64,000 bases of DNA from an uncultured bacterium (GTDB lineage Bacteria; Patescibacteriota; Minisyncoccia; Minisyncoccales; UBA5738): NCBI GenBank assembly GCA_903847095.1, contig CAINCQ010000041.1, positions 72,292 to 136,291 of the forward strand, read 5' to 3'. Below are positions 13,185-61,951 of the stretch, one piece after another. The translations under genes and the position numbers were made by a program. The notes beneath the pieces were generated by a model. That model was not told where the DNA came from, did not search any database, and was given only the letters and a program-made list of their open reading frames with translations. Every line of letters begins with the position of its first letter. The first letter of the stretch is position 1.

Positions 13185-13266
13185 ACAAGGCGCATATTAC
13201 CATAAATATCTTGGTTTTTGCATAACTGGGGAATTTTGCTGAAAGCCTTGGACAATGTTGAAACCA

Positions 13267-33112: not shown

Positions 33113-33114
33113 GT

Positions 33115-34269: not shown

Positions 34270-34347
34270 TTCACCTGATAGAATATCCTTGACTGATTAT
34301 AACACAAAAAACAATTCGACTGATCCGAAGTCGATCAAGCAAGAAGG

Positions 34348-45644: not shown

Positions 45645-46070
45645 TTATCCGACGTATATTGGTTTTGATTCCCATCCGACATAGCTGTGTTCCAGCTCTA
45701 TGATGTATTTTTCTATAGTCGTGTCCGGATAGGCGGATAAAATGATCGTTTTCGCCTGCTCCAGGATATTTTTGTAATGCTCGATTTCCGTCTCTTTATC
45801 CTTGAAACTCTCCGAACCGCCATAGGCTCCGCAATCCATATGCATTGTGAGGATGATACCCTGACAGTTATGCAATTTTTTTGAAATCTCTATCTGGTTC
45901 AAAAAATATGCGCGCGTCGGCTCTTCTATCAAACCTTTCAACGATCCGGCCGTAATGCAAAGGTCGCAGCCGTCGTGGCGTTCCAAAAAATGATTTTCCA
46001 GCTGCGGATGAAGACGCCAATCAAGACAGTCGAACAAAAGCCAGATTTTTTTATTGGGATCCGATGACAT
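45645..46070 (-). CDS. hypothetical protein
   Basis: From ATG 46070 (MSSDPNKKIWLLFDC...). The track's longer start, 46160, runs through tRNA-Val. Confidence 0.45.
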   Translation of the reverse strand: MSSDPNKKIWLLFDCLDWRLHPQLENHFLERHDGCDLCITAGSLKGLIEEPTRAYFLNQIEISKKLHNCQGIILTMHMDCGAYGGSESFKDKETEIEHYKNILEQAKTIILSAYPDTTIEKYIIELEHSYVGWESKPIYVG

Positions 46071-46103
46071 GGTTATTAAATTATTTTGTTGCTTATTTTC
46101 TGT

Positions 46104-46175
46104 GGACGATACTGGGTTCGAACCAGTGGCCTTTCCGATGTGAACGGAACGCTCTACCACTGAGCTAATCGTCCA
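46104..46175 (-). tRNA. tRNA-Val (anticodon CAC), CCA not encoded
   Basis: The reverse complement folds as a 72-nt cloverleaf: acceptor GGACGAT/ATCGTCC, D-arm GCTC-AGTGGTA-GAGC, anticodon stem TTCCG/CGGAA with loop TTCACAT, T-arm ACTGG-TTCGAAC-CCAGT. Confidence 0.9.
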
Positions 46176-46298: not shown

Positions 46299-49200
46299 TT
46301 AGACGAACCGGTCGGTAATCTTTTGGGCTTTGAGTTTGGCCCGTTGCAGATCAAGCACTTTCCGGGATTTGTAGACCAGGTAGTTCCGTTTCTTTTGGTC
46401 CAGCCACTCTTCGAACTTGATGAGCTTGGCTTTGAACGCCCAGATCAGGAACAGAGCCACGCCGGCCGGGATCACGAACGAATCAATGAAGGGATTGTTG
46501 GTGAAACCGGTAGATACGGTCGTCGCGCCTTGAACCATGGTCTTGGAAACCGATACGGTTGCCGTGTCGGAGTCCGAGCACGAATTCGTATCGCAGGTGG
46601 CTTTCGCCGTGTTGGTAAGGACAGTCTGTCCGAAGTTGAAATTATCCTTTGAGGCCACATAGGCATTAAAGGTAATCGTCTTGGAATCACCGCTGTCGAT
46701 ATTGCCCAGGTCGATACCCGAGACTAAGTTGTCGGAAATCCTGGTGCCGTCAACGGCAATGCCTTGGGCATTGGAGATGCCATTGGGGAGAATATCTGTC
46801 AAGACTACGTTTTTCAAATTCCCACCCGAGGCTTCAACCTTGATCTTAAAGGAAACCACGTCGCCCGGAGCGGCCGCGACCGAATCGGAGTAAGCGGTAC
46901 CGTTCGAAAGGTTGCTCACCAGCTTATCGATCGAGACATTGCCCTTTTGGGTTGAGCCGCAGCTTTCCACGCTGATCGTAGTGTTATCCTTGACATTGAT
47001 CTCGCCATTGTCGCTTACCACCTTAACGTAAGGTTTGTAGGTGCCGCTCTTGGAATAATCGCAGAGATCCTTGGCGGTATAGGTCTCGGTGCTGACGGTG
47101 ACCGTTTTGTCCCAATCGCCATCGCCATCGCAGGAGAAATAGTAAGTGTATTCGTCGCTATCGTGTCCCCGAGTGCTGAGTTCGGCGTACAGGTCGACGC
47201 CGTTCAACGGCGCGCAACCGTTATCGGGTTTCCCGCTCAGCGAAACCGAAGGCGTGTTGGATCCCCCGCCGCCTCCGCATCTTATCGCGGAAACGATGGC
47301 CGTCGCCGTGTCGGTGAGGCCGAGAGCCGTTGTTTTGACCGCGGCCGTGTAATCACTGGTGGCCGTGTAATCGCAAAGATCGGCAGCCGTGTATTTGCGG
47401 GCGGTGGTCGTTATTGTTTTTTCGTAAGTACCGTCGTTGGTACAATCAAAGTAATAAGTGATCTCGTCGCTCGCGTTCCCGCCCGTTAAGGTAGCTTCGG
47501 CGGTCAGGCTATCCTTTTTAATAGGCGCGCATCCGGTCTTGGTACTGGTCGTTAAAGTCGCGTCCAGCCCGATATCGGCCTTGTTCTTGACCAAGACATT
47601 CATGGTGTCGGTGCCGGATCCGCAGCTATTGGTAACCTTTAGCGTGCAGACGTAATAAGTATCCTGAGTGACCGTAGAGGCCTTGAACGTGGCATTGGCA
47701 CTGGAAGCGTTCTCGACGCTTCCGCCATTGCAAGTCCAGGCATAGGTCAAGTCCGATCCCGTGGCTGATCCGCTAAGGGTCGTTGATCCGGATTCGTAGA
47801 TTTCCAAATCTTGCCCGGCATTGGCCGTGGGCAGATTGCCCGAAACCGTGACCGTCACGCTATCGGTTGCCGATCCGTCTTCGCCGGTACAATTTAAAGT
47901 ATAGGTTTTAGGAGCATCGATCGTTCCCAGGGCCTCCGAGCCGCTCACCGCCTTGACCCCCGACCAGGCGCCTGATGCCGTGCAGGAGGTCGCGTTGGTG
48001 CTAGTCCAGGTAAGAGTGAAACCGGCTTGGCAAACGACAGATGAAGGACCGGTAAGGTCAACAGTCACCGGCTTAGCGGTATGTTCGCAGACTCCGTCGC
48101 CTTGGCAAACCGATCCGGCAGCGCAATTTTGATTTCCGCCCCATTCCAGGCATTCGTCGAGGTCGTAGTTGCCGCAGGTCTGAACCTGACCACTGGAACA
48201 GCGCTTGGCTCCGGCGGTCGAGCATTCGTTGGTACATTTGGTGACGCATTGTGCGCCATCGCATTTTTTATTTGTTAGAGCGCAATTATCCTGGTTTACC
48301 CATTCCCTGGTTTCGGTGCATTGCTGGTAAGAGCATCCCCGATTGATCCTTTCCCTTTGGGTCCAGTCGGCGGAACAGCGGTAATTTTCGGTCCAAAGGC
48401 TTACGCCGCAGTCTTGGTAAAGCTCTTGTTTGTTGTTGCAGGAATCGTACCAATACAGGTTGTTACCATCGCATTGTTTCTTCGTGTGGCTGGTGCAACC
48501 GCATTGGCCGTTTGAGCAGGTCTGGCCGGACGCGCACATCACGGTTCCGCCCCAATCGAGGCAGGAATCGCTGTCAAAATGTCCGCAACCTTCCACTCCG
48601 CCACCACTGGCGCAACGTTTGTCGCCTAAAGAGCATTCGTCGGTGCAGGTCGATATGCACTGTCCGCTGCCGGAGCAAACTTGTCCGGACGGGCAATCGG
48701 CCGCGCAGCCCCACTCGGTGCAGGTGTCGGTGTCGTAGTTACCGCAGGTTTCCACCTTGCCGTTAGCGCAGCGCTTGGCGCCGGAGGTGCATTCGTTATT
48801 ACAAGATGCGACGCATTCCCCGGATTCACATTTTTTACCGGCGCCGCACTCGACCGCTATCCATTGAAAACAAGATTTTCCGTTCAATCCGCAATATTTA
48901 TAAGCCGTGCCGGAAGCGCAGGCTTTCTGGCCAACGGTGCATTCGTTTTGGCATTCGGGCTGACAAGTGCCGAAAGTCGAAGATTTTATCCAATTATCGC
49001 AGACATATCCCCCGGAGCATTTTTTAGGATAACTCCAGGTGTAGCATCCGTTGGAACCTTTAACGCAATCGTTGTAATACACGTCGTCAGCGCATTTGGT
49101 CGTGCCGGGCGTGCAGATGCTGGTGCAGGGTGGTACTATTTTCCGGCAGTAAGTACTGCCGCCTGTTCCGACACATTCATTGCCGGCACCGCAGTCGTCA

Positions 49201-49334
49201 TCAAAACAGCAGGTTCCGCAAGCGGAAACGCCACTGGCGTAAAAAACGCCAACGGCAACTGCGAATATAGACAACGCGATTACCGCTGCCTTTAAAAAAT
49301 AACCGGTTAAACAAGTAATTGATTTGGACATCAT
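46299..49334 (-). CDS. giant Cys-rich repeat surface protein (~1012 aa), paralogue of 49659-55127
   Basis: From ATGATG at 49334 (MMSKSITC..., TM/signal anchor). Has about 7-8 diverged 8-Cys units (48075-49230), an Ig-like module (TVDLTGPSS...TLTWTSTNA), a PKD-like module (AGQDL...LTYAWTCNGG), two CAPxxx-DL modules, a DUF11-like domain and a C-terminal TVSTGF-TM-KAK anchor. Confidence 0.8.
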   Translation of the reverse strand: MMSKSITCLTGYFLKAAVIALSIFAVAVGVFYASGVSACGTCCFDDDCGAGNECVGTGGSTYCRKIVPPCTSICTPGTTKCADDVYYNDCVKGSNGCYTWSYPKKCSGGYVCDNWIKSSTFGTCQPECQNECTVGQKACASGTAYKYCGLNGKSCFQWIAVECGAGKKCESGECVASCNNECTSGAKRCANGKVETCGNYDTDTCTEWGCAADCPSGQVCSGSGQCISTCTDECSLGDKRCASGGGVEGCGHFDSDSCLDWGGTVMCASGQTCSNGQCGCTSHTKKQCDGNNLYWYDSCNNKQELYQDCGVSLWTENYRCSADWTQRERINRGCSYQQCTETREWVNQDNCALTNKKCDGAQCVTKCTNECSTAGAKRCSSGQVQTCGNYDLDECLEWGGNQNCAAGSVCQGDGVCEHTAKPVTVDLTGPSSVVCQAGFTLTWTSTNATSCTASGAWSGVKAVSGSEALGTIDAPKTYTLNCTGEDGSATDSVTVTVSGNLPTANAGQDLEIYESGSTTLSGSATGSDLTYAWTCNGGSVENASSANATFKASTVTQDTYYVCTLKVTNSCGSGTDTMNVLVKNKADIGLDATLTTSTKTGCAPIKKDSLTAEATLTGGNASDEITYYFDCTNDGTYEKTITTTARKYTAADLCDYTATSDYTAAVKTTALGLTDTATAIVSAIRCGGGGGSNTPSVSLSGKPDNGCAPLNGVDLYAELSTRGHDSDEYTYYFSCDGDGDWDKTVTVSTETYTAKDLCDYSKSGTYKPYVKVVSDNGEINVKDNTTISVESCGSTQKGNVSIDKLVSNLSNGTAYSDSVAAAPGDVVSFKIKVEASGGNLKNVVLTDILPNGISNAQGIAVDGTRISDNLVSGIDLGNIDSGDSKTITFNAYVASKDNFNFGQTVLTNTAKATCDTNSCSDSDTATVSVSKTMVQGATTVSTGFTNNPFIDSFVIPAGVALFLIWAFKAKLIKFEEWLDQKKRNYLVYKSRKVLDLQRAKLKAQKITDRFV

Positions 49335-49577
49335 GATATTTTCCGAAGCGATCTTTTCGGGATAACTTCGGCATTTTTTATTATTGTTGCGAACCACGGG
49401 TTTGCCTGTGGACAAAAAGAGTCGCCGGAGGCTAATTACTCTTTTGGAATAAAAAACCGCCGTCTTCCTTACCGCTTTGTCGGAAGGAAGGAAACCCCTG
49501 GTCTCCTGTTTCAATGAAACAGAGAAGGACTTAGGTGCTCCGCCCCGCATAATACGGGATATTATATTACTATCTAT

Positions 49578-49605
49578 ATTATACATTATTTATTTAAAAT
49601 GTCAA
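49578..49605 (-). promoter_or_regulatory. sigma70-type promoter (TTGACA-N16-TATAAT) ~240 nt upstream of the 49334 start
   Basis: The minus strand reads ttgaca ttttaaataaataatg tataat, located between the two giant genes. Confidence 0.5.
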
Positions 49606-49658: not shown

Positions 49659-52600
49659 TCAGTCTATGAAACGGTCTGTTATGCGTTTTACCTTTAATTG
49701 GGCTATTTTGGCCCCAAGCTTTTTTTGCGATTGGAATTTAGTGAATGCAATGCGTCTTAAATCAAGCCAAGCCTCAATAGCTAAAATTTTGGCTTTTAGC
49801 GTCCAAATTAGGAGAAGCGATAGGCTTAGAGGGATCACAAAGGAATCGACAAACGGATTATCGGTAAAGCCGGTTGAGACCGTGGTAATACCTTCGATTT
49901 CCGCCCTTTGGACAACCACATCGGCCGTATCGGAATCGCTGGTACCTTTGCCGCGCGCGGTTGCGGTGTTGGTGATAGTCGTTTGTCCGTAGTTGAACTC
50001 CGACGCTTTGGCCACGGTAGCGGTAAACGAAACGGTTACCGTATCCCCGTTATTAAGATCGTCCAGTGTCAAACCATTCGCCAGATCATTGTTTACCGTC
50101 CGTCCGTCGATTCTGATATCGCGGGGATTGGAGATACCTCTAGGTAAAATATCAGTGATTTTTAATTCTCGTACATTATCCGACACGGCTTCGATCACGA
50201 TTTTGAAATTGACGAAATCGCCGGGTAAGGCGTTCACCGAATCAAAGTATCCGGCCCCGCGGGAAAGATTGCTTACGGTTTTATCAACCTTAATTCTTCC
50301 GTTCACTCCGGCGCAATCATCGGTATTTATTACCAGAGAGTCCTCATCCGACCGGCCGCTATTTTCAACTTTGACCCTGGCGGTATAATTATCAGCGCTA
50401 TCGTAGTCGCACAATCCGCGAGCCGTGTAGGTCGTGGCCGTAGTGGTGATGGTTTTGTCCCATGTTCCGTCATCCTCGCAGTCAAAATAATAGGTATACT
50501 CGTCATCGCTCTGGTTGTCGTAGCCGGTTATATGAGCCGTAAGATCGACGTTGCTCAAAGGCGCGCACCCGTTATCGGGGCGGGCCGTGAGGTCGACATT
50601 AAATTCGGTGCTCGCGCAACTTTTTACCTTCACATCGACGGTATCACTGGCTTCGTTGCCGTTGATCTCGACCGTAACTTTGGCGGTATGGGTTGCCGCC
50701 GTTTTGTAATCGCAAAGGTCTTTGGCAGTATAAGTATCATTGCTTGTGGTAATGGTTTTATCCCAGTTCCCATCGTTATCACAATCGAATCGATAAGTGA
50801 ATTCGTCGGAATTATTACCGGCGCTATCGTAATTAGCGATCGTGGCGATCAGATCTACATTGTTCAAGGGCTTACAACCGCCGGTAGGCTCGGTTTTGAG
50901 CCGGACCGTGAATTCTTGACCGCAATCATTCGCTCCGATCATCACACTGTCGGTTGCTTCCTTGCCGGATTCGGATCCTTCAACCTTCACTTTAGCGCGA
51001 TAATCGTTGGCGGTTTGATAATCACACAAATCGCGAGCCGTGTAGGTCGTGGCCGCAGTAGTGATGGTTTTGTCCCAATTTCCATCGCCTTCGCAAGAGA
51101 AGTAGTAGGTATATTCACTGTCTTGGTCTCCTTGGATGTCGGAAACCTTGGCCGTGAGATCCACATTATTCAAGGGCGCGCAGCCATTGTCGGGGCTCAC
51201 GCTTAGATTCACCGAAAATTGGCCGGTTACTATATTTTTTACAGCTATATTGACCGTGTCGCTATCGATTTTACCGCAATTGTTGGTTACTTTAAGGGTA
51301 CAGGTATAAACCGTGTCGCGTGATATTTCGGCTGCGAAGAAAGTTGGCCGGGCGGTATCGGCGTTATCAAGGGTTCCGCCGTTACAGGTCCAGGTGTAAG
51401 TTAAATCATTGTCATCAGAACCGGAAGTCGAGTTGGAACCATCCAACTGGATATCCTCACTTTCATCGATCTTTAAATCATCTCCGGCATCGGCGTTTGG
51501 GTTGACGGTTTTTACGCTGATAGCAATGTTGTCGGATGTTGATCCGCCTAAACCAGTGCATTTAAGAGTGAAAGTTTTATTGGCTGTAATATTGTCGATC
51601 GTTTCCGATCCGGATGTTTCCTTGGCCCCCGACCATCCGCCGGAAGCAGCGCAAGTTTGGGCATTAGTCGAGGTCCAGGTCAAGGTAGCCGATCCTTGGC
51701 AAGAAACGGAACCGGGACCAGCAAGATCGACTGTCGGTTTATCGGTTCCGCAATCTTTCGAGCAGCTGGTTTTCGTTTCTCCGCAGTCGGAATTGCATTT
51801 TCCGTCTCCACAAAAGTAGCACTGGCCGTTGCACTTATCGTAACCGCTCCACCCGGCGCATGAGTTAGAACCATAGTTTCCGCAGGTACGGCCGGAAGTA
51901 CCAGAGCACTGGTGGTCTCCCAAAGTACACTGGTCGCTGCAGCCCTTAACACAGCCACCATCCTGGCAAGCGTAACCAGTTGAGCAATTTTTAACCGCGG
52001 ACCATTCGTAGCAAGAATCAAGATCATATTTTCCGCAAGTCCTGTATCCGGAATCGCCGGAGCATTCCTTTTCGCCGGGCGAACATTCATCGGAACAAGA
52101 ATTTACGCAGCTGCCATTCTGGCAACCATAGCCAAAGCTACAGTCTTTTGACACACCCCAAACGGAACAACCCTGCGAGTTCTTGGCGCAGATTTGATAA
52201 GCGGAATCTCCGGAGCATTGTTTCTGGCCCAACGAACATTCGTCGGAACAGGATCTTACGCAAACCCCGTCTTGGCAAACATAACTATTGGTACAGTTTT
52301 TTACCGTACCCCATTCCAAACATTTATCGGAATCGTAGTTTCCGCAAATACGATAGCCCGCATCGCCGGAACATTCTTTGGCACCGCTGATACATTCGTC
52401 GGAGCAGGAAGAAACGCAGCTGCCATTCTGGCAGGCGTAACCATTGTTGCAATCAGTGGTAGAACCCCAAACATAACAACCGCTGGAACCTTTCACGCAA
52501 GTTTGGTAGCCGCCGGTTCCCGAACATTGCTTGGATCCGGAAGTACATTCATCGGAGCATGACCTGACACAACTGCCATTCTGGCACGCGTAGCCGGTGG

Positions 52601-55127
52601 AACAGTTTGAGGTCGAACCCCAGACATAGCAACCGCTGGAGTCTTTCACGCAAGTTTGGTAGCCGTTAGTTCCTGAGCATTGTTTGGATCCGGACGTACA
52701 GACATCGGAGCATGACTTGATACACAATCCATTTTGGCAAGCATAGCCGGAAGAACAGTTAGCGGCTGAACCCCAAACATAACAACCTGACGAGTTTTTT
52801 TGACAAGTCTGATATGCGGAATCACCGGAGCATTGTTTCTGGCCCGACAAACATTCGTCGGAACAAGATCGGACACAATTGCCGCCTTGGCATACATAAC
52901 CAGTAGAACAGTTTTTGGGCGTACCCCATTCAGTGCACTTGTCGCTATCATAGTTGCCACAGATACGGTAGCCCGTATCACCGGAGCATTCTTTTTCCCC
53001 GTTCGTACACTCGTCGGAGCAGGAAGACACACAGCTTCCATTCTGGCAGGCGTAACCATTGTTGCAATTATTAATTGAACTCCAAACGTAGCAACCGGAG
53101 CTTGCTTTAGTACAGGTTTGGTAACCATTGGTTCCCGAGCATTGTTTGGATCCGGACGTACAGACATCGGAGCACGATCTGATACAGGAACCATCTTGGC
53201 ATATATAATCAGTCGAACAATTAGTTGCATTACTCCATTGATAGCAACCGTTCGATGCTTTAACACAAACCTGGTAGCCATTGGTCCCCGAACATTGTCT
53301 GGACCCGGAAGAGCATTGATCCGAACATGACCTAACACAGCTGCCATTTTGGCAAGCGTAGCCGGTGGAACAGGAATTGGCCGAGCCCCAGGCAAAACAG
53401 CCACTGGAACTTTTAACACAGGTTTGATAAGCACCTGTTCCCGAGCATTGTTTGGATCCGGAGGTACAGACATCGGAGCATGATCTGACGCAGCTACCAT
53501 TCTGACACGCGTAGCCGGTTGAACAGTTTGAGATAGAACCCCAGACATAGCAACCCGAACTTCCCTTGACGCAAGTTTGATATGCGTTCGTTCCCGAACA
53601 TTGTTTGGATCCGGAAGTACAGACATCGGAGCATGACCTGACACAGCTGCCATTCTGACACGCGTAGCCGGTGGAACAGTTTGAGGTAGAACCCCAGGCA
53701 AAACAACCCGAACTTCCTTTGACACAAGTTTGATAAGCGTTCGTTCCCGAGCATTGCTTTGAGCCAGAAGTGCATATGTCGGAACATGACCTGACACAAC
53801 TGCCATTTTGGCACGCGTAGCCGGTGGAACAGTTTGAAACCGATCCCCAAGCAAAACAGCCCATTGAGTTTTTAACGCAAATTTGATATCCGGCAGTTCC
53901 CGCGCATTGTTTTGACCCAGAACTACAAACATCCGAACAAGATTTAATACACGAGCCGTTTTGGCATTTGTAGCCGGCGGAGCATGAATTTGCCGATCCC
54001 CAAACATAACAACCACCGGAGCCTTTCACGCAAGTTTGATAGGCAGTGGTGGCGGAACATTGCCTGGACCCGGATGTACATATGTCGGAACAGCTCCGTA
54101 CGCAGCTTCCGTTTTGACAAGCGTAGCCGGTGGAACAACTAGAAGTGGAACCCCAAGCATAACACCCATTCGAACCTTTCACGCAGGATTGGTAAGCGTT
54201 GGTACTTGAACATTTCTTCGATCCCGACGTACAAACGTCCGAACATGACTTGACACAGCTGCCATTTTGGCAAGCGTAGCCCGATGAACAGGAGTTGGCC
54301 GAACCCCAGACATAGCAACCGCTGGAGCCTTTCACGCAGGTTTGATAAGCAGTATTACTGGAACATTTCTTGGAACCCGAAGAACACGTATCCGAGCAGG
54401 ACTTAACGCATGAGCCGTTCTGGCATTTGTAGTTGGTGGAACAGTTTGAGGTAGAACCCCAGACATAACAACCACTGGAGCCTTTTACACAAGTTTGGTA
54501 ACCGCTGGTTCCCGAGCATCTTTTGGAACCCGAAGAACACGTATCCGAGCAGGACTTAACGCATGAGCCGTTCTGGCATTTGTAGTTGGTGGAACAAGAG
54601 TTGGTCGATCCCCAGACGTAGCATCCGGACGAGCCTTTCACGCAGGTTTGATATGCGTTTGACGATGAGCATCTTTTGGACCCGGAAGAACATTGATCCG
54701 AACATGACCTAGCACAAGAGCCGTTTTGGCAAGCGTAGCCCGATGAACAAGAGTTGGCCGAACCCCAGACATAGCAACCGCTGGAGCCTTTCACGCAGGT
54801 TTGATAACCGCTTGCTCCTGAACATCTCCGGGCCCCGGAAGAACATTGATCGGAGCATGACCTAACACAAGAGCCGTTTTGGCAAGCGTAGCCGCTAGAA
54901 CAGGCTATGACCGATGACCATTCGTAGCAATAATCGGAATCGTAATTGCCGCAGACTTGATATCCATTACCCGAACAACGTCTTTGGCCGCTGGAACAGG
55001 TATCGGAACAAGACGTTACGGCGCTAACTGTCGATGGTTTTATTAAAACAAAATAAGCCGCCATAACCGCGATCAAAAATATAAATATAATAAAAAATTT
55101 CTTAAAACGCAATGTTTTAATTCGCAT
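49659..55127 (-). CDS. giant Cys-rich tandem-repeat surface protein (1822 aa)
   Basis: N-terminal TM/signal anchor, about 21 tandem 51-aa 8-Cys repeats, an Ig-like module, a PKD-like module, four CAPLNNVDL...YTYYF.C..DG.WDKT modules, a DUF11-like domain (VDKTVSNLS...ITDILPRGIS) and a C-terminal TVSTGF-TM-KAK anchor. Confidence 0.85.
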   Translation of the reverse strand: MRIKTLRFKKFFIIFIFLIAVMAAYFVLIKPSTVSAVTSCSDTCSSGQRRCSGNGYQVCGNYDSDYCYEWSSVIACSSGYACQNGSCVRSCSDQCSSGARRCSGASGYQTCVKGSSGCYVWGSANSCSSGYACQNGSCARSCSDQCSSGSKRCSSSNAYQTCVKGSSGCYVWGSTNSCSTNYKCQNGSCVKSCSDTCSSGSKRCSGTSGYQTCVKGSSGCYVWGSTSNCSTNYKCQNGSCVKSCSDTCSSGSKKCSSNTAYQTCVKGSSGCYVWGSANSCSSGYACQNGSCVKSCSDVCTSGSKKCSSTNAYQSCVKGSNGCYAWGSTSSCSTGYACQNGSCVRSCSDICTSGSRQCSATTAYQTCVKGSGGCYVWGSANSCSAGYKCQNGSCIKSCSDVCSSGSKQCAGTAGYQICVKNSMGCFAWGSVSNCSTGYACQNGSCVRSCSDICTSGSKQCSGTNAYQTCVKGSSGCFAWGSTSNCSTGYACQNGSCVRSCSDVCTSGSKQCSGTNAYQTCVKGSSGCYVWGSISNCSTGYACQNGSCVRSCSDVCTSGSKQCSGTGAYQTCVKSSSGCFAWGSANSCSTGYACQNGSCVRSCSDQCSSGSRQCSGTNGYQVCVKASNGCYQWSNATNCSTDYICQDGSCIRSCSDVCTSGSKQCSGTNGYQTCTKASSGCYVWSSINNCNNGYACQNGSCVSSCSDECTNGEKECSGDTGYRICGNYDSDKCTEWGTPKNCSTGYVCQGGNCVRSCSDECLSGQKQCSGDSAYQTCQKNSSGCYVWGSAANCSSGYACQNGLCIKSCSDVCTSGSKQCSGTNGYQTCVKDSSGCYVWGSTSNCSTGYACQNGSCVRSCSDECTSGSKQCSGTGGYQTCVKGSSGCYVWGSTTDCNNGYACQNGSCVSSCSDECISGAKECSGDAGYRICGNYDSDKCLEWGTVKNCTNSYVCQDGVCVRSCSDECSLGQKQCSGDSAYQICAKNSQGCSVWGVSKDCSFGYGCQNGSCVNSCSDECSPGEKECSGDSGYRTCGKYDLDSCYEWSAVKNCSTGYACQDGGCVKGCSDQCTLGDHQCSGTSGRTCGNYGSNSCAGWSGYDKCNGQCYFCGDGKCNSDCGETKTSCSKDCGTDKPTVDLAGPGSVSCQGSATLTWTSTNAQTCAASGGWSGAKETSGSETIDNITANKTFTLKCTGLGGSTSDNIAISVKTVNPNADAGDDLKIDESEDIQLDGSNSTSGSDDNDLTYTWTCNGGTLDNADTARPTFFAAEISRDTVYTCTLKVTNNCGKIDSDTVNIAVKNIVTGQFSVNLSVSPDNGCAPLNNVDLTAKVSDIQGDQDSEYTYYFSCEGDGNWDKTITTAATTYTARDLCDYQTANDYRAKVKVEGSESGKEATDSVMIGANDCGQEFTVRLKTEPTGGCKPLNNVDLIATIANYDSAGNNSDEFTYRFDCDNDGNWDKTITTSNDTYTAKDLCDYKTAATHTAKVTVEINGNEASDTVDVKVKSCASTEFNVDLTARPDNGCAPLSNVDLTAHITGYDNQSDDEYTYYFDCEDDGTWDKTITTTATTYTARGLCDYDSADNYTARVKVENSGRSDEDSLVINTDDCAGVNGRIKVDKTVSNLSRGAGYFDSVNALPGDFVNFKIVIEAVSDNVRELKITDILPRGISNPRDIRIDGRTVNNDLANGLTLDDLNNGDTVTVSFTATVAKASEFNYGQTTITNTATARGKGTSDSDTADVVVQRAEIEGITTVSTGFTDNPFVDSFVIPLSLSLLLIWTLKAKILAIEAWLDLRRIAFTKFQSQKKLGAKIAQLKVKRITDRFID
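51745..55010 (-). repeat. in-frame tandem coding repeat array, period 153 bp (51 aa), ~21 units
   Basis: Each unit starts with (S/G)CSDxC. A 73-nt exact duplicate occurs at 54371-54443 and 54524-54596 (offset 153). A near-identical ~85-nt block recurs at offset 459 (54271 versus 54730). Confidence 0.9.
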
Positions 55128-55293: not shown

Positions 55294-55956
55294 TTAACTG
55301 TCGGATACTTCTACTTGGAAGATCGAGTCGTCGGCTCCGCCTTCCTCAAAAACTACTTCGTATTCGCCAGTTTCCGCATTTTGTCCAAAATGGAATCTGG
55401 CGATCGTGGTGGTCCATTTGGCGTCTTCGCCGGTCTTGGCCTTACCATGATCTATCAGTAATCTGACGGCGAGGAACGAATCATAGTCGGTACCGGGGTT
55501 TGAAGGGGCGCTAAGATAGGCGAAATTATAAGCGTCCGATGCCGATATCGCTTTGCCGACCGGTCCGATCCAGCCCATTCTATGCATCCACGCCATTACC
55601 TCATTGGCTATGGTCGAGGGGGCGGAAAGCCCGTATGTGACATCATCGTTCCAATTCTTCGTCATGAACTGGTTCAACTGCTCTTCCGTATAGGCCGATC
55701 CCCCGTCTTGACGGAAGGTAAAGGTAGCCATGGCCGCCGGAAAGATCGCTCTCGTTGCCGCAGCCGACATTGAGTCGTTGAGCACAAAAGGTGCTCCCCC
55801 AACTTCGGTTGTCGCTTTGTTCAAGGTCGGTTCTATGACCCCCATAGACACTACTCTTGGGTGGGCCCGTTCGACTGCTATTACTGTGCCAAACAAGCAA
55901 CTGCCGATCAGTAAGGTAATCAGCAGACCAATTATCAATTTACTCATTCTATTCAC
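55294..55956 (-). CDS. hypothetical secreted protein
   Basis: 220-aa ORF with a signal peptide or anchor (MNRMSKLIIGLLITLLIGSCLFG) and its own promoter. Confidence 0.5.
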   Translation of the reverse strand: MNRMSKLIIGLLITLLIGSCLFGTVIAVERAHPRVVSMGVIEPTLNKATTEVGGAPFVLNDSMSAAATRAIFPAAMATFTFRQDGGSAYTEEQLNQFMTKNWNDDVTYGLSAPSTIANEVMAWMHRMGWIGPVGKAISASDAYNFAYLSAPSNPGTDYDSFLAVRLLIDHGKAKTGEDAKWTTTIARFHFGQNAETGEYEVVFEEGGADDSIFQVEVSDS

Positions 55957-56082: not shown

Positions 56083-56568
56083 TCATGGTTTCGCCTCCTT
56101 TTTGGAGACATTTTTTTGGACCTCAATTAATTTGATTGCCCGTGTTTTTTTTGTTTGCACGGTTTCGTTGCCAAAGATCATTGTTACGCCTTGACCAGAG
56201 ATGACCTTGGTCTTTGGTGCGTTGACTGAAGTATTCTCATTGTTCACGATCAAATCCGTTTCCACAGTCCTTATCGTGGTGAGATTCTCCTTCTGACCGG
56301 CCACCTTCACCTTGCTTGGACCACCCAGGGATTCAATGGCCTGGCTAGTGCCGTTGGGCGTAGCCACCGTTCCAGAAGCAATTTTATCCGGGGAGGAAGG
56401 GTTAGGAATCGGCTGGATCACCGTAACTCCGCCAAACAGTAATGAACCCAGAATGAGTCCGATTACGATCAGGGCTAGAGCCAGCACTGCTAATGCCAGC
56501 CAACCTTTTTTGCTCATGCCCTTATCTTTCGCTACTTCTTCTCCCCCATCTTTGTCCGTATCCGTCAT
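56083..56568 (-). CDS. hypothetical membrane-anchored protein
   Basis: 161-aa ORF with an acidic N-terminus, one TM helix (WLALAVLALALIVIGLILGSLLFGG) and an extracytoplasmic Thr/Val-rich domain. Confidence 0.45.
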   Translation of the reverse strand: MTDTDKDGGEEVAKDKGMSKKGWLALAVLALALIVIGLILGSLLFGGVTVIQPIPNPSSPDKIASGTVATPNGTSQAIESLGGPSKVKVAGQKENLTTIRTVETDLIVNNENTSVNAPKTKVISGQGVTMIFGNETVQTKKTRAIKLIEVQKNVSKKEAKP

Positions 56569-56978: not shown

Positions 56979-57713
56979 TCAGTCTTGTAGAACGGTTTCG
57001 ACCACGATGCGTTTGAAATCTTTGCCCGGCGGCCAGCAGCTTACCAAAAATGCGGTATTTTTATTGGGATCCGTGGTTGGCAATTCTTCGCCCGGCATTA
57101 AAAAAACGGTTTTAACGACCTCGTAATTAAAGTTTTGACCATTATATCCCAGCTTTACTATATCCCCGGCTTTCAGGTCGTTGAGACGGCTGAAAACCCA
57201 ATCGTATTTGATTTTTGGCCACCCGGGAGGTGCGCTATGCCCAAGAAGGATCATGTCTCCGTTCTGGCCCGGCATGGTTCCGCCCGGATACATAACAACC
57301 CCGGAATCCAAATATTTATGAATGATAGTGTTGTCGGTGGTATCGGATAGGACGATGGGAGCCTCGATTCCGATCTTCGCGATCGAAATTCCAAAACTTT
57401 TTTTAGCGCCTCCATTTTTTATCGGATCAACCGGCTGTTTTTTAACGGCGGTTGCGCCTGATTCTTCTTTTGGATCTTCCGATCCTTGGGTCGGTTGCAT
57501 TTTAACTTCGGTCGGGGAGTTTTCCACGATGACCGCCGGTTTTTCTTCGGGCTTAAGGTCGCTAATATATTGTCCGGCAACTTTGTAATTGAAAAGCCAA
57601 GAGATGTTTGGCCAATTAAACCCGATGTAAAGTACGGCAAAAAAAATCACAAAGGGTTTCCAGAGGATCTCAATGGTCGAAGGTACGTGCTTTTTGGGTA
57701 ATTTCACTTCCAT
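56979..57713 (-). CDS. sortase-family transpeptidase
   Basis: 244-aa ORF with an N-terminal TM anchor, catalytic His in MILLGHSAPPGW, catalytic Cys in AFLVSCWPPG (TLxTC-like position) and a downstream Arg in FKRIVVETV. Confidence 0.75.
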   Translation of the reverse strand: MEVKLPKKHVPSTIEILWKPFVIFFAVLYIGFNWPNISWLFNYKVAGQYISDLKPEEKPAVIVENSPTEVKMQPTQGSEDPKEESGATAVKKQPVDPIKNGGAKKSFGISIAKIGIEAPIVLSDTTDNTIIHKYLDSGVVMYPGGTMPGQNGDMILLGHSAPPGWPKIKYDWVFSRLNDLKAGDIVKLGYNGQNFNYEVVKTVFLMPGEELPTTDPNKNTAFLVSCWPPGKDFKRIVVETVLQD

Positions 57714-57734: not shown

Positions 57735-58700
57735 TCAGAATATATTGAGGTCATGCGGAATGAGATCGAGAAGAACGCCTTTGTCGATAGCCACGAATAC
57801 CACGAGAAGGACGACAAAAGCCGCTGCTTTGAAAAATAGATCCTTGTGCTTAAAATCCAGGTTGAGAAGCAAATTAGCCGATAGCAAAAGGATCATGAAC
57901 AGGATCGAAGCATAAATAATGTATTGGAGAAAAACGTAATAGTCTTGGGACACAAAAGACAGAAAATCGAATTTTAATCCTTCGCGCGCGTCCTGGGTTC
58001 CCAAAACCTTTTCATAAGACGGAAGCACTGGCGTTGCCGATGCCGGTTGTCCCGCCGGAACGGTTTTATCAAGCGTTGCCGCGGGTGCCGGCGTCACCGT
58101 CTTTGCGCCCAAAACCTGCTGTTTTGAGCCAAATAGCTGCACCACGACAGTAGTTTCCGCACCCTGGAAGTTCCCGGTCACCACGGCAATACCCACTTCC
58201 CGATATTTATTGTTAAGGATGTTGGCTTTGTGGCTGGGCGAATCGATCCAGGCGTCGTTGACCTCGCTGGAATCGAGGAATCCGATCGCCAGGTTCTCCC
58301 CGGCGTAGTGGTAATTGTACCCGGACAGCTTAAACCAATACCAGGGGCTGACGCCTTTCGGACTGAAATGGGAAAAATAGCCGTTGTTAAGCATATCTTG
58401 AGCTTTAAGATAGGCCGCGCGGTCGAGAACCGGGTTTTCGGTCAAAGTCGTTAAACCGATTTTTTCCCGTTCTTGATTGGTGAGCTGGACCAAGGCTGTT
58501 TTGGTGATATCGGCAAAATAGGAAGACCGGGGAAAATAAAACAGGAACGATGCGGCAAACACTTTCAAAACTAGGATGGCGATCAGAAAATAAGCCAGAA
58601 AAGGGCCCGCGAAAATACCGGCCCGCTGACCGTTTTCCTTACAGGGAAATAAAAAAATCTTGGTTTTTTTAACCGCCGTAGCGGCAAGTTGTAGTAACAT
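57735..58700 (-). CDS. CAP/SCP/PR1-like (YkwD-type) domain protein, membrane-anchored
   Basis: CAP motifs: LDRAAYLKAQDM, YFSHFSPKG, YAGENLA, WIDSPSHKANILNNKYREVGIAV. TM helices sit at both ends. The -10 box at 58710-58715 excludes the track start 58727, so ATG 58700 is preferred (near-leaderless). Confidence 0.7.
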   Translation of the reverse strand: MLLQLAATAVKKTKIFLFPCKENGQRAGIFAGPFLAYFLIAILVLKVFAASFLFYFPRSSYFADITKTALVQLTNQEREKIGLTTLTENPVLDRAAYLKAQDMLNNGYFSHFSPKGVSPWYWFKLSGYNYHYAGENLAIGFLDSSEVNDAWIDSPSHKANILNNKYREVGIAVVTGNFQGAETTVVVQLFGSKQQVLGAKTVTPAPAATLDKTVPAGQPASATPVLPSYEKVLGTQDAREGLKFDFLSFVSQDYYVFLQYIIYASILFMILLLSANLLLNLDFKHKDLFFKAAAFVVLLVVFVAIDKGVLLDLIPHDLNIF

Positions 58701-58709
58701 GATAAACTT

Positions 58710-58737
58710 ATTATACCAGTTATTCATAAAATGTCAA
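58710..58737 (-). promoter_or_regulatory. sigma70-type promoter (TTGACA-N16-TATAAT)
   Basis: The minus strand reads ttgaca ttttatgaataactgg tataat. ATG 58700 lies about 10 nt after the -10. Confidence 0.55.
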
Positions 58738-58841: not shown

Positions 58842-60509
58842 TTAATAGCAGTAACAGGCGGTTTCGCCCAAATCGTTGCCGTGGAAAGCGCAGTTATCGG
58901 ATGGATCTTGTTTGTAGTTTGATCCCGTGCAGGTTTCCCCGGCCGCGGCTTTAGGCTTGCAAACACCACAAGAGTCGTCCGGCACTTCCCGCACGAACGC
59001 CGGAGGAATGACCGCACCCCCGGTCATATTGCCGTGATAACTCCGCGGATCGTGCAAGACGCAAAAATACTCGTATTTATCGTAGGCGGTCGACCAGCGT
59101 TGATTGTCATGGCTGTAATAAAGAAAACCAAAATAGGCCTTGCAATTATTGTACGCTTGGTTGCCGCTTATTTGCATCGAGATCACTGCCTCGCCCGCGT
59201 TATTACATTGGGCCGCATTGCCCACAACCCCCATAAGATCATGGACTTCGTACACGCAAGCGTTTTTTGAGGGATCGGTCAAGCCAACACCCACGCAAAG
59301 TTTTCCGTTCTTTTTACAGATCTCGTCGCAATTGAAACCGCCCCGGAGACCGCCCCAGGTATTGTCGTCAAGCGAAACTTCCCCGGCCCAGTCCTGCATC
59401 AGTGTTTTTCCGCCGGTCAGATGCACGTCGGCCGGAGTGGCTCTAACGATCGTAAAAGGTTTATCTCCGATCTTGCCATCCGCATATTCATCCATCAGAT
59501 TCTCGCAACAATAATCGGTAATATAGAAATTGCTCTTGCCGGTATAGTCGTTTTTTGGTTTGTAAAGATCGGTTTGGTATTTATCCTTGGTATATTCAAT
59601 ATCCCCGAATACGTTGACACACTTTAATTTCTTGGTATCGGGCATACAAACGTATTTTCCTTTTTTACATTCGTTATCGTCAACCTTGCCATTGTTGTTT
59701 AAGTCAAGGTAGCAGCCTAAACCGATCTTGTCCTTTTCTTCATTGCATTGATTAACCACCACTTCGTCTTTCAGCTCGCAGGTATCGACGATACAGCGTG
59801 AAAGAATGTCTTCACAGCCGGCCGTGGTATTTCCGGTGCGCGTCTGACAATTAGCCACCGTTTCCTTGGGGTCGCATTTTTCGTCGCCGGTCACTTTTCC
59901 GTCACCACAACTAAGTTTTGGTGTCAGCTCGCAGGTTCCCTCAATACAACGCGAAAAAATGTCTTTGCAACCGGCCACGGTATTTCCGGTCCGCGCCTGG
60001 CAATCGGCCACCGTTTCCTTTGGGTCGCATTTTTCGTCGCCGGTCACCAATCCGTCGCCACAGGTTAATTTTCCGTCTTCGGGCATACCGCAGGTCACCT
60101 TGACCTTCCACCAACCATCTTTTAATCCCGACCACTCGGTGACCCCGATCACCATAAAAAAGGTGTTGATGAACAGCCAACCGGCCATCATTACCAGATA
60201 GCCTTTGAAAACGCTGGTCGCGATCATTTTTCCGGTTTCATAGTAGCTTGGGTTTGATCCCGAAATAAGAAACATGAATCCGGCAATGGCCAAAGCGACG
60301 GCGCCAAAAACGGTTGCCACATTGAAGAGCAGGAAATCCATCGCCAGCCGGAGCATCTCAAAAAACCAGCAGATGTTGCAATCCGGCTGGCCCGGCGCGC
60401 CACAGGGCACGAGGGTGGCGGAATAAACGGGCAAAAGCGGTGTCAGCGCGATCACGCCGGCTAAAAATAAAACCATTATCAATAAGTTTTTGGTTGGATA
60501 AAAACGCAT
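58842..60509 (-). CDS. pilin-like (LVPCG..C..C, 2-TM) N-domain fused to a large Cys-rich extension (555 aa)
   Basis: N-domain at 60090-60509 (LVPCGAPGQPDCNICWFF, two TM helices, EWSGLK..WWK..CG). It is followed by two tandem CGDGxVTGDEKCDPKETVA(D/N)CQ(A/T)RTGNT units, then about 300 aa containing many Cys residues. Confidence 0.55.
   Translation of the reverse strand: MRFYPTKNLLIMVLFLAGVIALTPLLPVYSATLVPCGAPGQPDCNICWFFEMLRLAMDFLLFNVATVFGAVALAIAGFMFLISGSNPSYYETGKMIATSVFKGYLVMMAGWLFINTFFMVIGVTEWSGLKDGWWKVKVTCGMPEDGKLTCGDGLVTGDEKCDPKETVADCQARTGNTVAGCKDIFSRCIEGTCELTPKLSCGDGKVTGDEKCDPKETVANCQTRTGNTTAGCEDILSRCIVDTCELKDEVVVNQCNEEKDKIGLGCYLDLNNNGKVDDNECKKGKYVCMPDTKKLKCVNVFGDIEYTKDKYQTDLYKPKNDYTGKSNFYITDYCCENLMDEYADGKIGDKPFTIVRATPADVHLTGGKTLMQDWAGEVSLDDNTWGGLRGGFNCDEICKKNGKLCVGVGLTDPSKNACVYEVHDLMGVVGNAAQCNNAGEAVISMQISGNQAYNNCKAYFGFLYYSHDNQRWSTAYDKYEYFCVLHDPRSYHGNMTGGAVIPPAFVREVPDDSCGVCKPKAAAGETCTGSNYKQDPSDNCAFHGNDLGETACYCY
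59766..60071 (-). repeat. in-frame tandem duplication, 2 x 153 bp (51 aa CGDG-type unit)
   Basis: ccaccgtttcct(t)tggggtcgcatttttcgtcgccggtcac recurs at 59855 and 60008 (offset 153). Protein residues 147-197 and 198-248 align. Confidence 0.85.
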
Positions 60510-60517
60510 AAATTTGC

Positions 60518-61951
60518 TTACTTTAAGGAGTCAGATCCGCCCATTGCTTCATTCAAATCCGACTTTCCATCGCCATCCGTATCGGCTACGGTTGGATTGG
60601 TGCCCAATTCCTTTTCTTTGAGATCGGTCAGGCCGTCCATATCAAAATCCAGATCTCCCGGACCGGTCGGATTGGATAATTCCTGGATTTCGGTAAGATC
60701 ATCTTTGCCGTCGCCGTCAGTGTCTTTCTTGAAACGATCGGTTCCATAAAATATCTCGTCAATATCGTTTAATCCGTCCTGATCGGTATCATAAAGGCTT
60801 TGGCCCTTTTTAAGAGGATTAAATCCGTTGTTCCATTCGGCTCCGTCGCTCATTCCGTCTCCGTCCGTATCCGGGTTCAGCGGGTCGGTGCCTATCTTTT
60901 TCTCAAGGTCATCGGCCAGACCGTCGCGGTCTTGATCGTTGGAAATAGGATCTTTGCCCAGTTTTACCGCTTCCCCGTCCTTGATCCCATCGTTATCGGA
61001 GTCGGGCTTAGAACATGACGATTTATAGGTCTTAACTTCTTGGTAGTCGCTTAATCCATCATGATCGGTATCGGCAACGGAGGGATCGCATCCCTTGGCT
61101 ATCTCATCATAATCGTTTAATCCGTCACCGTCGGTATCGGCTTTTGACGGATCAGTGCCAAACCAAAGTTCGTTATAATCGGCAATGCCATCCTTATCGT
61201 AGTCAAAATTACCGTCTTTGATCATTGCACTGCAAGCTAGGCGGGCACCCTCGAACTGGATTTTTTGGCAATCGGCCTCGGTTTTCGCGGCCCGATAGGC
61301 CACGTAGGCTTCAAAAGATTGTTTAAAAACCGTTTCTCCGGTTTTTTCCGTAAGTTCAACCCCATTCCTCGACGCGTCCAGTACGCAAAGTTTCCCGTAT
61401 TCGAGGGTTTTTATTTTGGCACAATAATCAAGCGGCAACGATGTATCGCCATTCTTTCCGATATTGGTCGCTTTGACACGGTCAACGCATTCCTGGGATT
61501 CAAAAACGTCACCATCGCTTTCATGGCACAAAGCGGGATTATTGCTGTTGATCGCGACATCCTGGACACACCGAGACCGGTCGCTTTCGCTGGAAAGCTT
61601 GCCACAGTAGCGACCGTCCATTCTTAAGCTCGCCTCCCGGAAAAGGCAATCATTGCGAAAGGTTAAATCATCGAACATCAAACAATCCTTGATGTTTTTG
61701 GTCTTATAAAGAATTTCCGAAAGATGCCGGCGGTTGAAACATTCTTTCCGTTTGGCTCCGTCGCTCATGCTGGCGCAGTCGCCGGGAACGTCGGGCGCGC
61801 CTTCGATGAGCCCGTTTCCGTTCTCAATGACCGGTTTTTGCGCTACCTCCCTTTTTGGTAAAAAAAATGGCACGAATACAATTGCCAAAATGATCATTGA
61901 AAAAAACAGCAAACCGATTCCGATCCAAAAGCTTTTTTTCGATTCTTCCAT
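60518..61951 (-). CDS. membrane-anchored Cys-pair repeat protein with ~10 thrombospondin type 3-like Ca-binding repeats (477 aa)
   Basis: TM anchor, a Cys-pair repeat region similar to 32126-33112, then repeated DxDxDG motifs (DTDGDGLND, DTDHDGLSD, DSDNDGIKD, DQDRDGLAD, DTDGDGMSD, DTDQDGLND, DTDGDGKDD, DFDMDGLTD, DTDGDGKSD). Its stop lies 8 nt before the next start. Confidence 0.7.
   Translation of the reverse strand: MEESKKSFWIGIGLLFFSMIILAIVFVPFFLPKREVAQKPVIENGNGLIEGAPDVPGDCASMSDGAKRKECFNRRHLSEILYKTKNIKDCLMFDDLTFRNDCLFREASLRMDGRYCGKLSSESDRSRCVQDVAINSNNPALCHESDGDVFESQECVDRVKATNIGKNGDTSLPLDYCAKIKTLEYGKLCVLDASRNGVELTEKTGETVFKQSFEAYVAYRAAKTEADCQKIQFEGARLACSAMIKDGNFDYDKDGIADYNELWFGTDPSKADTDGDGLNDYDEIAKGCDPSVADTDHDGLSDYQEVKTYKSSCSKPDSDNDGIKDGEAVKLGKDPISNDQDRDGLADDLEKKIGTDPLNPDTDGDGMSDGAEWNNGFNPLKKGQSLYDTDQDGLNDIDEIFYGTDRFKKDTDGDGKDDLTEIQELSNPTGPGDLDFDMDGLTDLKEKELGTNPTVADTDGDGKSDLNEAMGGSDSLK

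Follow-up and report, generated by a model that had tools for sequence, protein, structure and literature searches.

A 64,000-nucleotide stretch of contig CAINCQ010000041.1 (assembly GCA_903847095.1), which we call the window, comes from an uncultured member of the Patescibacteriota (Minisyncoccales) and encodes two giant surface proteins, a membrane-anchored sortase and a membrane protein with a CAP domain, all on the minus strand. The window is ordinary chromosome, with uvrABC, dnaB, cysS and dnaX present. The two giants end in the same unusual C-terminal tail, in which a short motif ending in T-G is followed by a hydrophobic segment and a long basic helix. This tail, the family of proteins that carry it and its relation to the sortase are the subject of this report; the features are listed in Table 1.

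Translation gives ...VQGATTVSTGFTNNPFIDSFVIPAGVALFLIWAFKAKLIKFEEWLDQKKRNYLVYKSRKVLDLQRAKLKAQKITDRFV as the end of the smaller giant (stop codon 46299-46301) and ...IEGITTVSTGFTDNPFVDSFVIPLSLSLLLIWTLKAKILAIEAWLDLRRIAFTKFQSQKKLGAKIAQLKVKRITDRFID as the end of the larger one (stop codon 49659-49661), in agreement with an earlier sequence-only reading of this DNA, which had found the two endings almost identical. Both run ..G-x-TTVSTGF-T[ND]NPFxDSFVIP, then a transmembrane (TM) segment, then a basic helix of ~42 residues. Over their last 199 residues the giants are 48% identical (BLASTP E = 8e-65), and their resemblance is therefore one of homology, not chance. Within the window this type of ending is confined to these two open reading frames (ORFs).

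The larger giant begins with a signal peptide (MRIKTLRFKKFFIIFIFLIAVMAAYFVLIKPSTVSA) and continues with ~25 Cys-rich repeats, PKD domains, a DUF11-like domain and the tail. The smaller giant has the same plan: signal peptide, Cys-rich repeats, PKD-like domains, a DUF11-type domain and the tail. In both proteins the DUF11-type domain (TIGR01451/PF01345-like) immediately precedes the tail. The length of ~1012 residues given to the smaller giant in the sequence-only reading fits its likely start but not its maximal ORF, which has 1095 residues. The likely start is an internal MMSKS at position 49334 of the window, giving 1011 residues; we favor it because a signal-peptide-like segment sits there (MMSKSITCLTGYFLKAAVIALSIFAVAVGVFYASGVSA) and because a syntenic orthologue begins at the equivalent point. 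The exact smaller-giant protein is present on 15 metagenome contigs. Both giants carry long arrays of a ~50-residue six-cysteine repeat (CSDxCxxGxxxCSGxxxYQxCxKxSxGCxxWxxxxxCxxGYxCQNGxC) for which we found no Pfam match. The arrays span residues ~40-1100 of the larger giant and ORF residues ~120-500 of the smaller, and the repeat recurs in the related loci L021 and L026.

Table 1. Tail elements, giant surface proteins and cassette genes of the window (coordinates are window positions)
Feature	Position	Strand	Remarks
Smaller giant surface protein	46299..49586	minus	maximal ORF 1095 aa; putative substrate
Smaller giant, extended recognition motif VQGATTVSTG	46506..46535	minus	candidate sortase cleavage site between T and G
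Smaller giant, post-motif linker and TM segment FTNNPFIDSFVIPAGVALFLIWAF	46434..46505	minus	
Smaller giant, basic cytoplasmic helix KAKLIKFEEWLDQKKRNYLVYKSRKVLDLQRAKLKAQKITDRFV	46302..46433	minus	~42-44 aa
Larger giant surface protein	49659..55127	minus	1822 aa; putative substrate
Larger giant, whole tail	49662..49898	minus	
Larger giant, motif IEGITTVSTG	49869-49898	minus	
Larger giant, linker and TM segment FTDNPFVDSFVIPLSLSLLLIWTL	49797-49868	minus	
Larger giant, cytoplasmic helix	49662-49796	minus	
Membrane-anchored sortase	56979-57713	minus	244 aa; PF04203; putative processing enzyme
CAP/SCP (YkwD-like) membrane protein	57735..58727	minus	330 aa; PF00188, TIGR02909; directly upstream of sortase
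Small membrane/secreted protein	56083-56568	minus	161 aa; between sortase and larger giant
Small membrane/secreted protein	55294-55956	minus	220 aa; between sortase and larger giant
Pro_CA_2 gene	45645-46160	minus	counterpart in L026 at 12763-13242

A consensus derived from 149 tails of the family gives the motif as V-x-G-A-[TS]-x-[VI]-[SP]-T-G, with KTMVQGATTVSTGFTNNPF as an example peptide for the candidate sortase motif, and the longer upstream part as A-x-V-x-V-x-[RK]-x-x-V-x-G-x-x-A-[TS]-x-[VI]-[SP]-T-G. The linker and TM segment read [LIF]-T-[ND]-N-x-[FLW]-x-D-S-F-x-L-P-L, ~8 hydrophobic residues and I-W-x-F, and the helix reads [KR]-S-x-I-x-x-x-E-E-W-L-D-x-R-K-x-x-Y-x-x-Y-[KR]-S-x-K-x-L-x-x-K-I-A-x-I-K-x-x-E. 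Motif and linker together form the best-conserved region of the family proteins (3.12 bits per column), against 2.51 for the TM segment, 2.08 for the cytoplasmic helix and 2.04 for the DUF11 part. The most conserved motif positions are T (99%), G (99%), V/I (96%), G (89%) and V (82%); those of the linker and TM segment are N (91%), D (92%), S (87%), P (97%) and W (88%), and those of the helix W (93%), L (96%) and K (87%). Invariance of VSTGF, which the sequence-only reading had put up for checking, is thus confined to its T and G: the residue before the T is S in only 69% of the family or P in 15% (as in EVPTG, which some members, such as P0012, carry literally), and the residue after the G is usually not F but L (68%). 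The KAK described after the TM segment does not generalize, the family consensus being [KR]-[SA]-x.

The motif T lies a median of 68 residues from the C terminus, with a hydrophobic stretch of ~20 residues after the motif. For the cytoplasmic part the median is 41 residues (range 34-78 in the parse used) and the median net charge +7, so the tail is indeed longer than in classical sorting signals. An AlphaFold2 (AF2) model of the last 199 residues, built from a 3-sequence multiple sequence alignment with a mean predicted local distance difference test score (pLDDT) of 65.6, has a beta-sandwich, an unstructured stretch of low confidence that bears the motif, and one continuous helix. This predicted helix runs from the ID of FIDSF through the C-terminal end, TM segment included, at pLDDT 77-83. 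The family thus has the tripartite arrangement of a C-terminal sorting signal, namely motif, hydrophobic segment and positively charged tail. As the sequence-only reading had it, the motif is not LPXTG, with which it shares only T-G, and in place of a short basic tail of a few residues it has a long one that is conserved in sequence, apart from the rare short variants in L019 and L078.

We found the tail to be a conserved, modular and strictly C-terminal element of a large unnamed family. An exhaustive HMMER search of 1.84 billion protein representatives with a three-sequence tail profile returned 292 cluster representatives at E <= 1e-3, of which 180 reach E <= 1e-10 and 4 reach E <= 1e-30. 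In all 150 representatives listed, the module ends at most 7 residues from the C terminus. The proteins range from under 100 residues (fragments) to 2208 residues, originate from Patescibacteria (Paceibacterota/Parcubacteria) and bear NCBI names of the type 'hypothetical protein [Candidatus Paceibacterota bacterium]'. A word-index homology search with the last 199 residues gave one protein (P0001), and the same search with the 92-residue tail gave zero matches. Searching the tail sequence against Pfam, NCBIfam and PDB brought up nothing meaningful (the narI and CatA-like models of NCBIfam scored E > 0.1, PDB E = 3.9), and none of the NCBIfam CTERM models matched it at E <= 1. The LPXTG-anchor models PF00746 and TIGR01167 match neither the giants or their tails (E <= 1) nor any of 76 family members.

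The modularity of the tail is apparent from the proteins that it terminates. DUF11 (Pfam) stands directly before it in 52 of 76 full-length members, and the N-terminal passengers differ (PKD, Big_9, DUF4114, bMG10, DUF7619, CBM35 and others). Minimal members consist of a signal peptide, DUF11 and the tail in ~233 residues, and the tail is also found on small Fn3-like proteins in which we recognized no DUF11-type segment when reading the sequences. Of 123 representatives with an initial M and more than 200 residues, 94 have an N-terminal hydrophobic stretch, as judged by a crude regular expression, not a predictor. For a scan of one genome per GTDB species, a 38-sequence tail alignment proved too diverse and was replaced by a tighter one of 8 sequences, which samples only members with TNNxF[LVF]DSF; the 16 tail loci that it found therefore under-represent the family. 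Fifteen of them are labelled as Patescibacteria-type (Nealsonbacteria, Paceibacterota, Parcubacteria, Minisyncoccales, Staskawiczbacteria and 'Saccharibacteria' third-party assemblies). The sixteenth, on a 5-kb contig in a 'Syntrophales' bin, is taken to be misbinned.

Natural variants bear on which parts of the tail matter. The tail of L019 keeps motif, linker and TM segment and has a basic tail of 15-20 residues with no EEWLD helix. The 873-residue protein of L026, a syntenic orthologue that is 36% identical to the smaller giant across most of its length, ends RRAVQGATTVSTGF-GGNVLAG-TM-AKRKMTSEELLARKISSIKQNNLA, where only the motif, the TM segment and a 25-residue basic tail remain. A diverged variant directly after the sortase in L078 ends ...VAGASTDSGFWNF-TM-KRLSSEV. 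The substrates of L023, L029 and L083 retain ..G-[AV]-AT-x-x-[SPK]-TG and the EEW helix and have a different linker. The core common to the variants is therefore [AG]-A-T-x-[VI]-[SP]-T-G followed by a TM segment and a basic tail, an arrangement that follows the logic of a sortase signal.

The sortase of the window scores 58.3 bits against PF04203 (cutoff 26.6). In its clade the LGHSAPxxWP (His) and SCWPPGK (Cys) motifs and a downstream Arg are invariant in 60 homologues, and an N-terminal TM anchor is followed by a conserved juxtamembrane NWxx[IV]SWxFNY. The AF2 model is a sortase barrel with a mean pLDDT of 80.7 and block means >90 across most of the catalytic domain, which matches sortase structures in Foldseek at E ~1e-11. 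Among solved structures, those closest to it are sortases of classes C, A and D, with 20-26% identity. No cutoff is reached by the NCBIfam models for classes A-F (NF033745-NF033748 and others), for which the best scores were 39.7 bits for class C (cutoff 160), 39.1 for SrtD (140), 26.8 for class F (166) and 24.1 for class E (160), and the generic TIGR01076 gives 34.8 bits (cutoff 39.35). Because it falls below every NCBIfam class cutoff, we treat the enzyme as belonging to an unclassified Patescibacteria clade; classes C, A and D score similarly, and neither sequence nor structure assigns it to one of them. Enrichment of sortases in the candidate phyla radiation (CPR) has been reported (PMC6744442), and in the searchable literature we found no description of a recognition signal of CPR sortases or of this cassette.

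The juxtamembrane motif of the sortase occupies residues ~33-43 (window about 57585-57617). Its FNY is changed, to FHPGY or IANGEV, exactly in the loci whose substrates lack TNNxFxDSF (L023, L026, L029 and L083). This co-variation comprises two independent lineages only and has one counter-example (L078), and we put forward purely as a hypothesis that the juxtamembrane elements of enzyme and substrate might be in contact.

The sequence-only reading placed a sortase gene 7 kb away, which is right for the smaller giant (~7.4 kb from the start of its gene) but not for the 1822-residue giant, whose gene starts 1.85 kb downstream of the end of the sortase gene on the same strand. This proximity recurs across genomes. 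In 13 of 13 tail-centered genome loci with room upstream, the strand of the tail gene carries a homologue of the window's sortase (phmmer E 1e-40 to 1e-61) upstream of that gene, the other three of the 16 being left out for want of such room. It directly adjoins the tail gene in L008, L009, L011, L015 and L019 and is 0.9-2 kb off in the rest of the 13. In the reverse direction, a scan of metagenome contigs with a sortase alignment confirmed 386 relatives, and 80 loci were kept. These loci contain 32 genes that are positive with the tail hidden Markov model (HMM). Every one of them follows the sortase on its own strand; the upstream side and the opposite strand have none. The 80 loci hold more upstream than downstream sequence, and the naive chance of 32 of 32 is about 3e-21. 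Nineteen of the 32 begin less than 200 nucleotides after the sortase stop codon. Where at least 4 kb of downstream sequence is available, 21 of 26 sortase loci have a tail gene, to which the diverged variant in L078 can be added. Most loci have one substrate gene, encoding ~230 to >2000 residues, and two tandem tail genes, a small and a larger one, occur in L023, L029 and L083.

Thus, the tail genes are functionally linked to one sortase clade, in both directions. Because they almost always lie just downstream of it, the tail is most likely the sorting signal of that sortase. The sequence-only reading had offered a non-LPXTG sortase signal as one interpretation, and comparative gene context (13 of 13 and 21 of 26 loci) strongly supports it. 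The same reading had named canonical LPXTG substrates elsewhere as a finding that would count against it; a regular-expression search of 1494 ORFs of at least 100 residues, covering the neighborhoods (the window and all loci) as opposed to whole genomes, found no canonical LPXTG-type C-terminal signal. At L065 (5607-7867) and L078 (9259-12382), the cassettes stand beside genes that, by sequence motifs only, are FtsW-, MurG-, MurD- and MurI-like, a neighborhood of cell-wall synthesis that fits a peptidoglycan-related role of the sortase.

The CAP protein encoded directly upstream of the sortase has an N-terminal TM segment, an extracellular CAP domain, a Pro/Ala linker and two C-terminal TM segments. 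Its conserved features are FFADIT after the first TM segment, YAGENLA and SPSHK.NIL in the core, and LIPH after the last two TM segments. Of the 63 loci with at least 1.1 kb of sequence before the sortase, 57 have a homologue on the same strand that adjoins the start of the sortase gene or overlaps it, and in loci with no CAP gene (L008, L011 and L019) substrates still follow the sortase. We found nothing on a CAP-sortase pairing in the literature. The conserved order of the cassette is the CAP-TM protein, the sortase, 0-2 variable secreted proteins and the tail-bearing substrate or substrates.

We considered the proteins encoded between sortase and substrate as a core component and rejected them, as they are heterogeneous, Pro/Tyr/Arg-rich secreted proteins conserved only within sub-clades. 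Homologues of the 161- and 220-residue proteins of the window occur only in L001, L002 and L020, its closest relatives. Several other loci encode an intervening secreted protein with ..PWLG.I....DL.. and ..ECGNLCL.. and a low-complexity Tyr/Arg/Pro end, such as ...RPPGVRTR (L010 1747-2526, L004 3503-4423, L013 686-1528 and L017 7429-8193); it is absent from the window and belongs to no family that we recognized. A 225-residue secreted Fn3/PKD-like protein ending ...KPAIVTY is encoded just before the tail gene in L013 (1537-2214) and L017 (8276-8953). In L017 the next ORF begins at the base directly after its gene, and this protein could be a separate partner or part of a split or read-through gene.

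Other genes flank the cassette. Directly downstream of the substrates, both the window and its distant relative L026 have genes for Pro_CA_2 (PF20393, putative carbonic anhydrase-like), a Trp/Tyr-permease-family protein and a Na/Ca exchanger, so that synteny is conserved there. The window also holds two paralogous gene pairs on the minus strand (58842-61951 and 32126-34269), each encoding a thrombospondin type 3 (TSP3) repeat protein, of a Ca-binding type, and a Cys-rich membrane protein. One pair immediately precedes the CAP-sortase cassette. Matches to 33115-34296 and 32126-33226 were obtained with the p555 protein (E = 1e-38) and the TSP3 protein (E = 3e-16), respectively; the copy at 33115-34269 has a weak type IV secretion system (T4SS)-pilin-like N terminus (PF18895).

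Taking tail and gene context together, we consider it likely that the tail is an extended, lineage-specific sorting signal at which the co-encoded sortase cleaves between T and G and transfers the protein to an acceptor in the envelope. The precursor would be exported by its N-terminal signal peptide. Its C-terminal TM segment and basic cytoplasmic helix would then keep it in the membrane, which would place the unstructured V-x-G-A-T-x-[VI]-[SP]-T-G a few residues outside the membrane. There the membrane-anchored sortase encoded upstream, its His-Cys-Arg triad intact, would cut between the invariant T and G and transfer the protein through the Thr carboxyl to the acceptor, most probably a peptidoglycan precursor. 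A fragment of ~68 residues (G-LTNN...TM...helix) would be left in the membrane. The post-cleavage linker TNNxFxDSFxLPL probably docks on the sortase juxtamembrane NWxxISWxFNY, and the 41-residue basic helix is probably a retention, positioning or partner-binding element, possibly for the CAP-domain protein. That the sortase cuts between T and G at all, which acceptor it uses, how linker and helix dock and what the CAP protein does are what we infer from the data, not data in themselves.

Several observations weigh against this interpretation. The motif differs from LPXTG, and the HMMs for LPXTG anchors are silent. The 41-residue cytoplasmic tail equals a folded domain in conservation (2.08 bits per column), which is unexpected if it is simply discarded, as a classical sorting signal can make do with a handful of basic residues. 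No tail gene lies downstream in four of the 26 sortase loci (L057, L065, L070 and L087), where housekeeping genes follow instead. Finally, gene adjacency shows functional linkage, not chemistry. The non-LPXTG motif and the long tail make the signal atypical and do not refute it. A broader scheme, which we regard as possible though clearly less probable than the simple one, is a three-component surface-display system specific to Patescibacteria, made up of the CAP protein, a dedicated sortase and a signal of ~75 residues whose conserved TM segment and helix would serve a function in their own right. These could bring the precursor to a CAP-sortase complex or to a specific site of the envelope, or could remain in the membrane after cleavage as a peptide that reports on or regulates adhesin display. 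The acceptor, too, might be something other than conventional peptidoglycan.

The strong conservation of the helix could also mean that the tail is never cut. The giants would then be type I membrane adhesins held by a permanent anchor, the basic helix docking to a cytoplasmic or inner-leaflet partner and the sortase acting elsewhere or as a non-catalytic partner. The helix is more strongly conserved than a classical signal needs, AF2 joins helix and TM segment into one continuous helix, and the conserved D, S and P of the TM segment and linker suggest specific intramembrane contacts. We nevertheless find this, the main alternative, unlikely. Near-absolute invariance of T-G in an exposed juxtamembrane linker is the signature of a sortase site, the catalytic residues are invariant in the linked sortase clade, and no alternative signal-bearing substrates lie near these sortases. 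Moreover, the tails of L019, L026 and L078, which have no helix, keep motif, TM segment and basic residues beside the sortase. Nor are these tail-anchored membrane proteins in the usual sense, given that they have N-terminal signal peptides, ~41 residues after the TM segment, where such proteins have at most about 30, and a bulk of extracellular-type domains (PKD and DUF11).

Alternatively, the sortase could act as a pilin polymerase of the class C or B kind that joins the Thr to a lysine of another DUF11-tail protein and so builds fibers, either instead of anchoring to the cell wall or ahead of it, although we think this rather improbable. Its closest sequence and structure matches are indeed class C pilus sortases, but these matches are far below cutoffs and class A and D structures are nearly as good. 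The resemblance of [VI][SP]TG to the EVPTG/QVPTG pilin motifs of Streptococcus pyogenes, the tandem small and larger tail genes of L023, L029 and L083 and, in our own estimation, a loose similarity of the co-encoded CAP membrane protein to SipA of S. pyogenes pilus loci all point toward polymerization. Against this, the loci mostly have a single substrate gene, whose product varies from ~230 to >2000 residues. The DUF11-type domain has a moderately conserved Lys at its start (3.06 bits), but no extracellular Lys reaches 90% conservation. It is far less probable still that a different machine sorts these proteins, whether of the exosortase, archaeosortase or rhombosortase type or the CAP protein itself, and that the sortase linkage is incidental. 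The design of motif, TM segment and basic cluster is common to all CTERM signals, and a CAP membrane protein stands beside the sortase in 57 of 63 loci. However, the NCBIfam CTERM models do not recognize the tail, substrates directly follow the sortase even where the CAP gene is missing (L008, L011 and L019), and the invariance of T-G agrees with sortase chemistry. Reading the ORFs that lie between sortase and substrate or follow them in part of the loci, with no model search run for such enzymes, brought no polytopic gene of the exosortase or rhombosortase kind to notice.

Patescibacteria are ultra-small and make up a large share of bacterial diversity, and to our knowledge how they display giant adhesins is essentially unknown. 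All cultivated representatives are reported to live attached to host cells (PMC11623550). The system described here behaves as a pair of sortase and sorting signal, yet it escapes the motif, HMM and short-tail definitions of LPXTG signals, and its enzyme lies outside the curated classes. Its conserved signal of ~75 residues is unprecedentedly long, it has a conserved CAP-domain partner, and neither Pfam-A, NCBIfam and PDB nor the searchable literature contains it. Mechanistically it would extend a principle that is already known. If the tail is a sorting signal, then the signal with its dedicated sortase and CAP partner would yield a sequence rule by which the surface proteins that Paceibacterota display through sortase could be predicted from metagenomic data. 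It would also provide a new CTERM-type family for Pfam and NCBIfam, which currently lack the tail, and a sortase of different specificity (VxGATxVSTG) that could serve protein ligation. The conserved cytoplasmic helix poses a specific question for the biology of sorting signals.

Among known systems, the LPXTG signals of class A sortases (PF00746 Gram_pos_anchor; TIGR01167) are similar in having an N-terminal signal peptide, a strictly C-terminal tripartite signal whose motif ends in T-G, and a membrane-anchored Cys transpeptidase with a His-Cys-Arg triad encoded nearby. They differ in that the motif here is V-x-G-A-[TS]-x-[VI]-[SP]-T-G instead of L-P-x-T-G, 13 further conserved residues follow the T-G (TNNxFxDSFxLPL), and a conserved basic helix of ~41 residues takes the place of 5-10 basic residues. 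The curated anchor HMMs are blind to the tail, and the sortase is below every class A-F cutoff. In streptococci, a C-pep fragment that is retained in the membrane after LPXTG cleavage is reportedly sensed by a two-component system (Hall et al. 2019, Sci Signal). By pure analogy, such a circuit would give a reason for a conserved TM/cytoplasmic fragment after cleavage; unlike in the streptococcal case, we found no sensor kinase or peptidase partner in the cassette.

The FCT pilus system of S. pyogenes, with the class B sortase Spy0129 and SipA (PMC3019223, PMC4049620), likewise uses a non-LPXTG motif with V/P before T-G: Spy0129, which is not a class A sortase, cuts (E/Q/V)(V/P)PTG motifs between T and G (PMC3019223), the cleavage that we propose here. 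Both systems have a dedicated sortase beside its substrates and an accessory membrane protein in the same cluster. However, in place of a three-pilin set the tail system mostly has one large adhesin-like protein as its substrate, the accessory protein has a CAP/SCP domain and is not a signal-peptidase homologue, and no pilin lysine motif was identified in the tail proteins. The PEP-CTERM/exosortase, PGF-CTERM/archaeosortase, GlyGly-CTERM/rhombosortase and MYXO-CTERM systems (Haft, bioRxiv 10.1101/2023.06.07.544157) differ in that their enzymes are polytopic membrane proteases, whereas the linked enzyme here is a sortase-fold transpeptidase, and in that their domains comprise 25-35 residues, compared with a conserved region of ~75 residues here. 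Like the tail, they are lineage-restricted and place a C-terminal motif, a TM segment and a basic cluster on varied secreted proteins, and the route to their discovery was also the same: a conserved C-terminal motif and an enzyme tied to it by gene context or co-occurrence.

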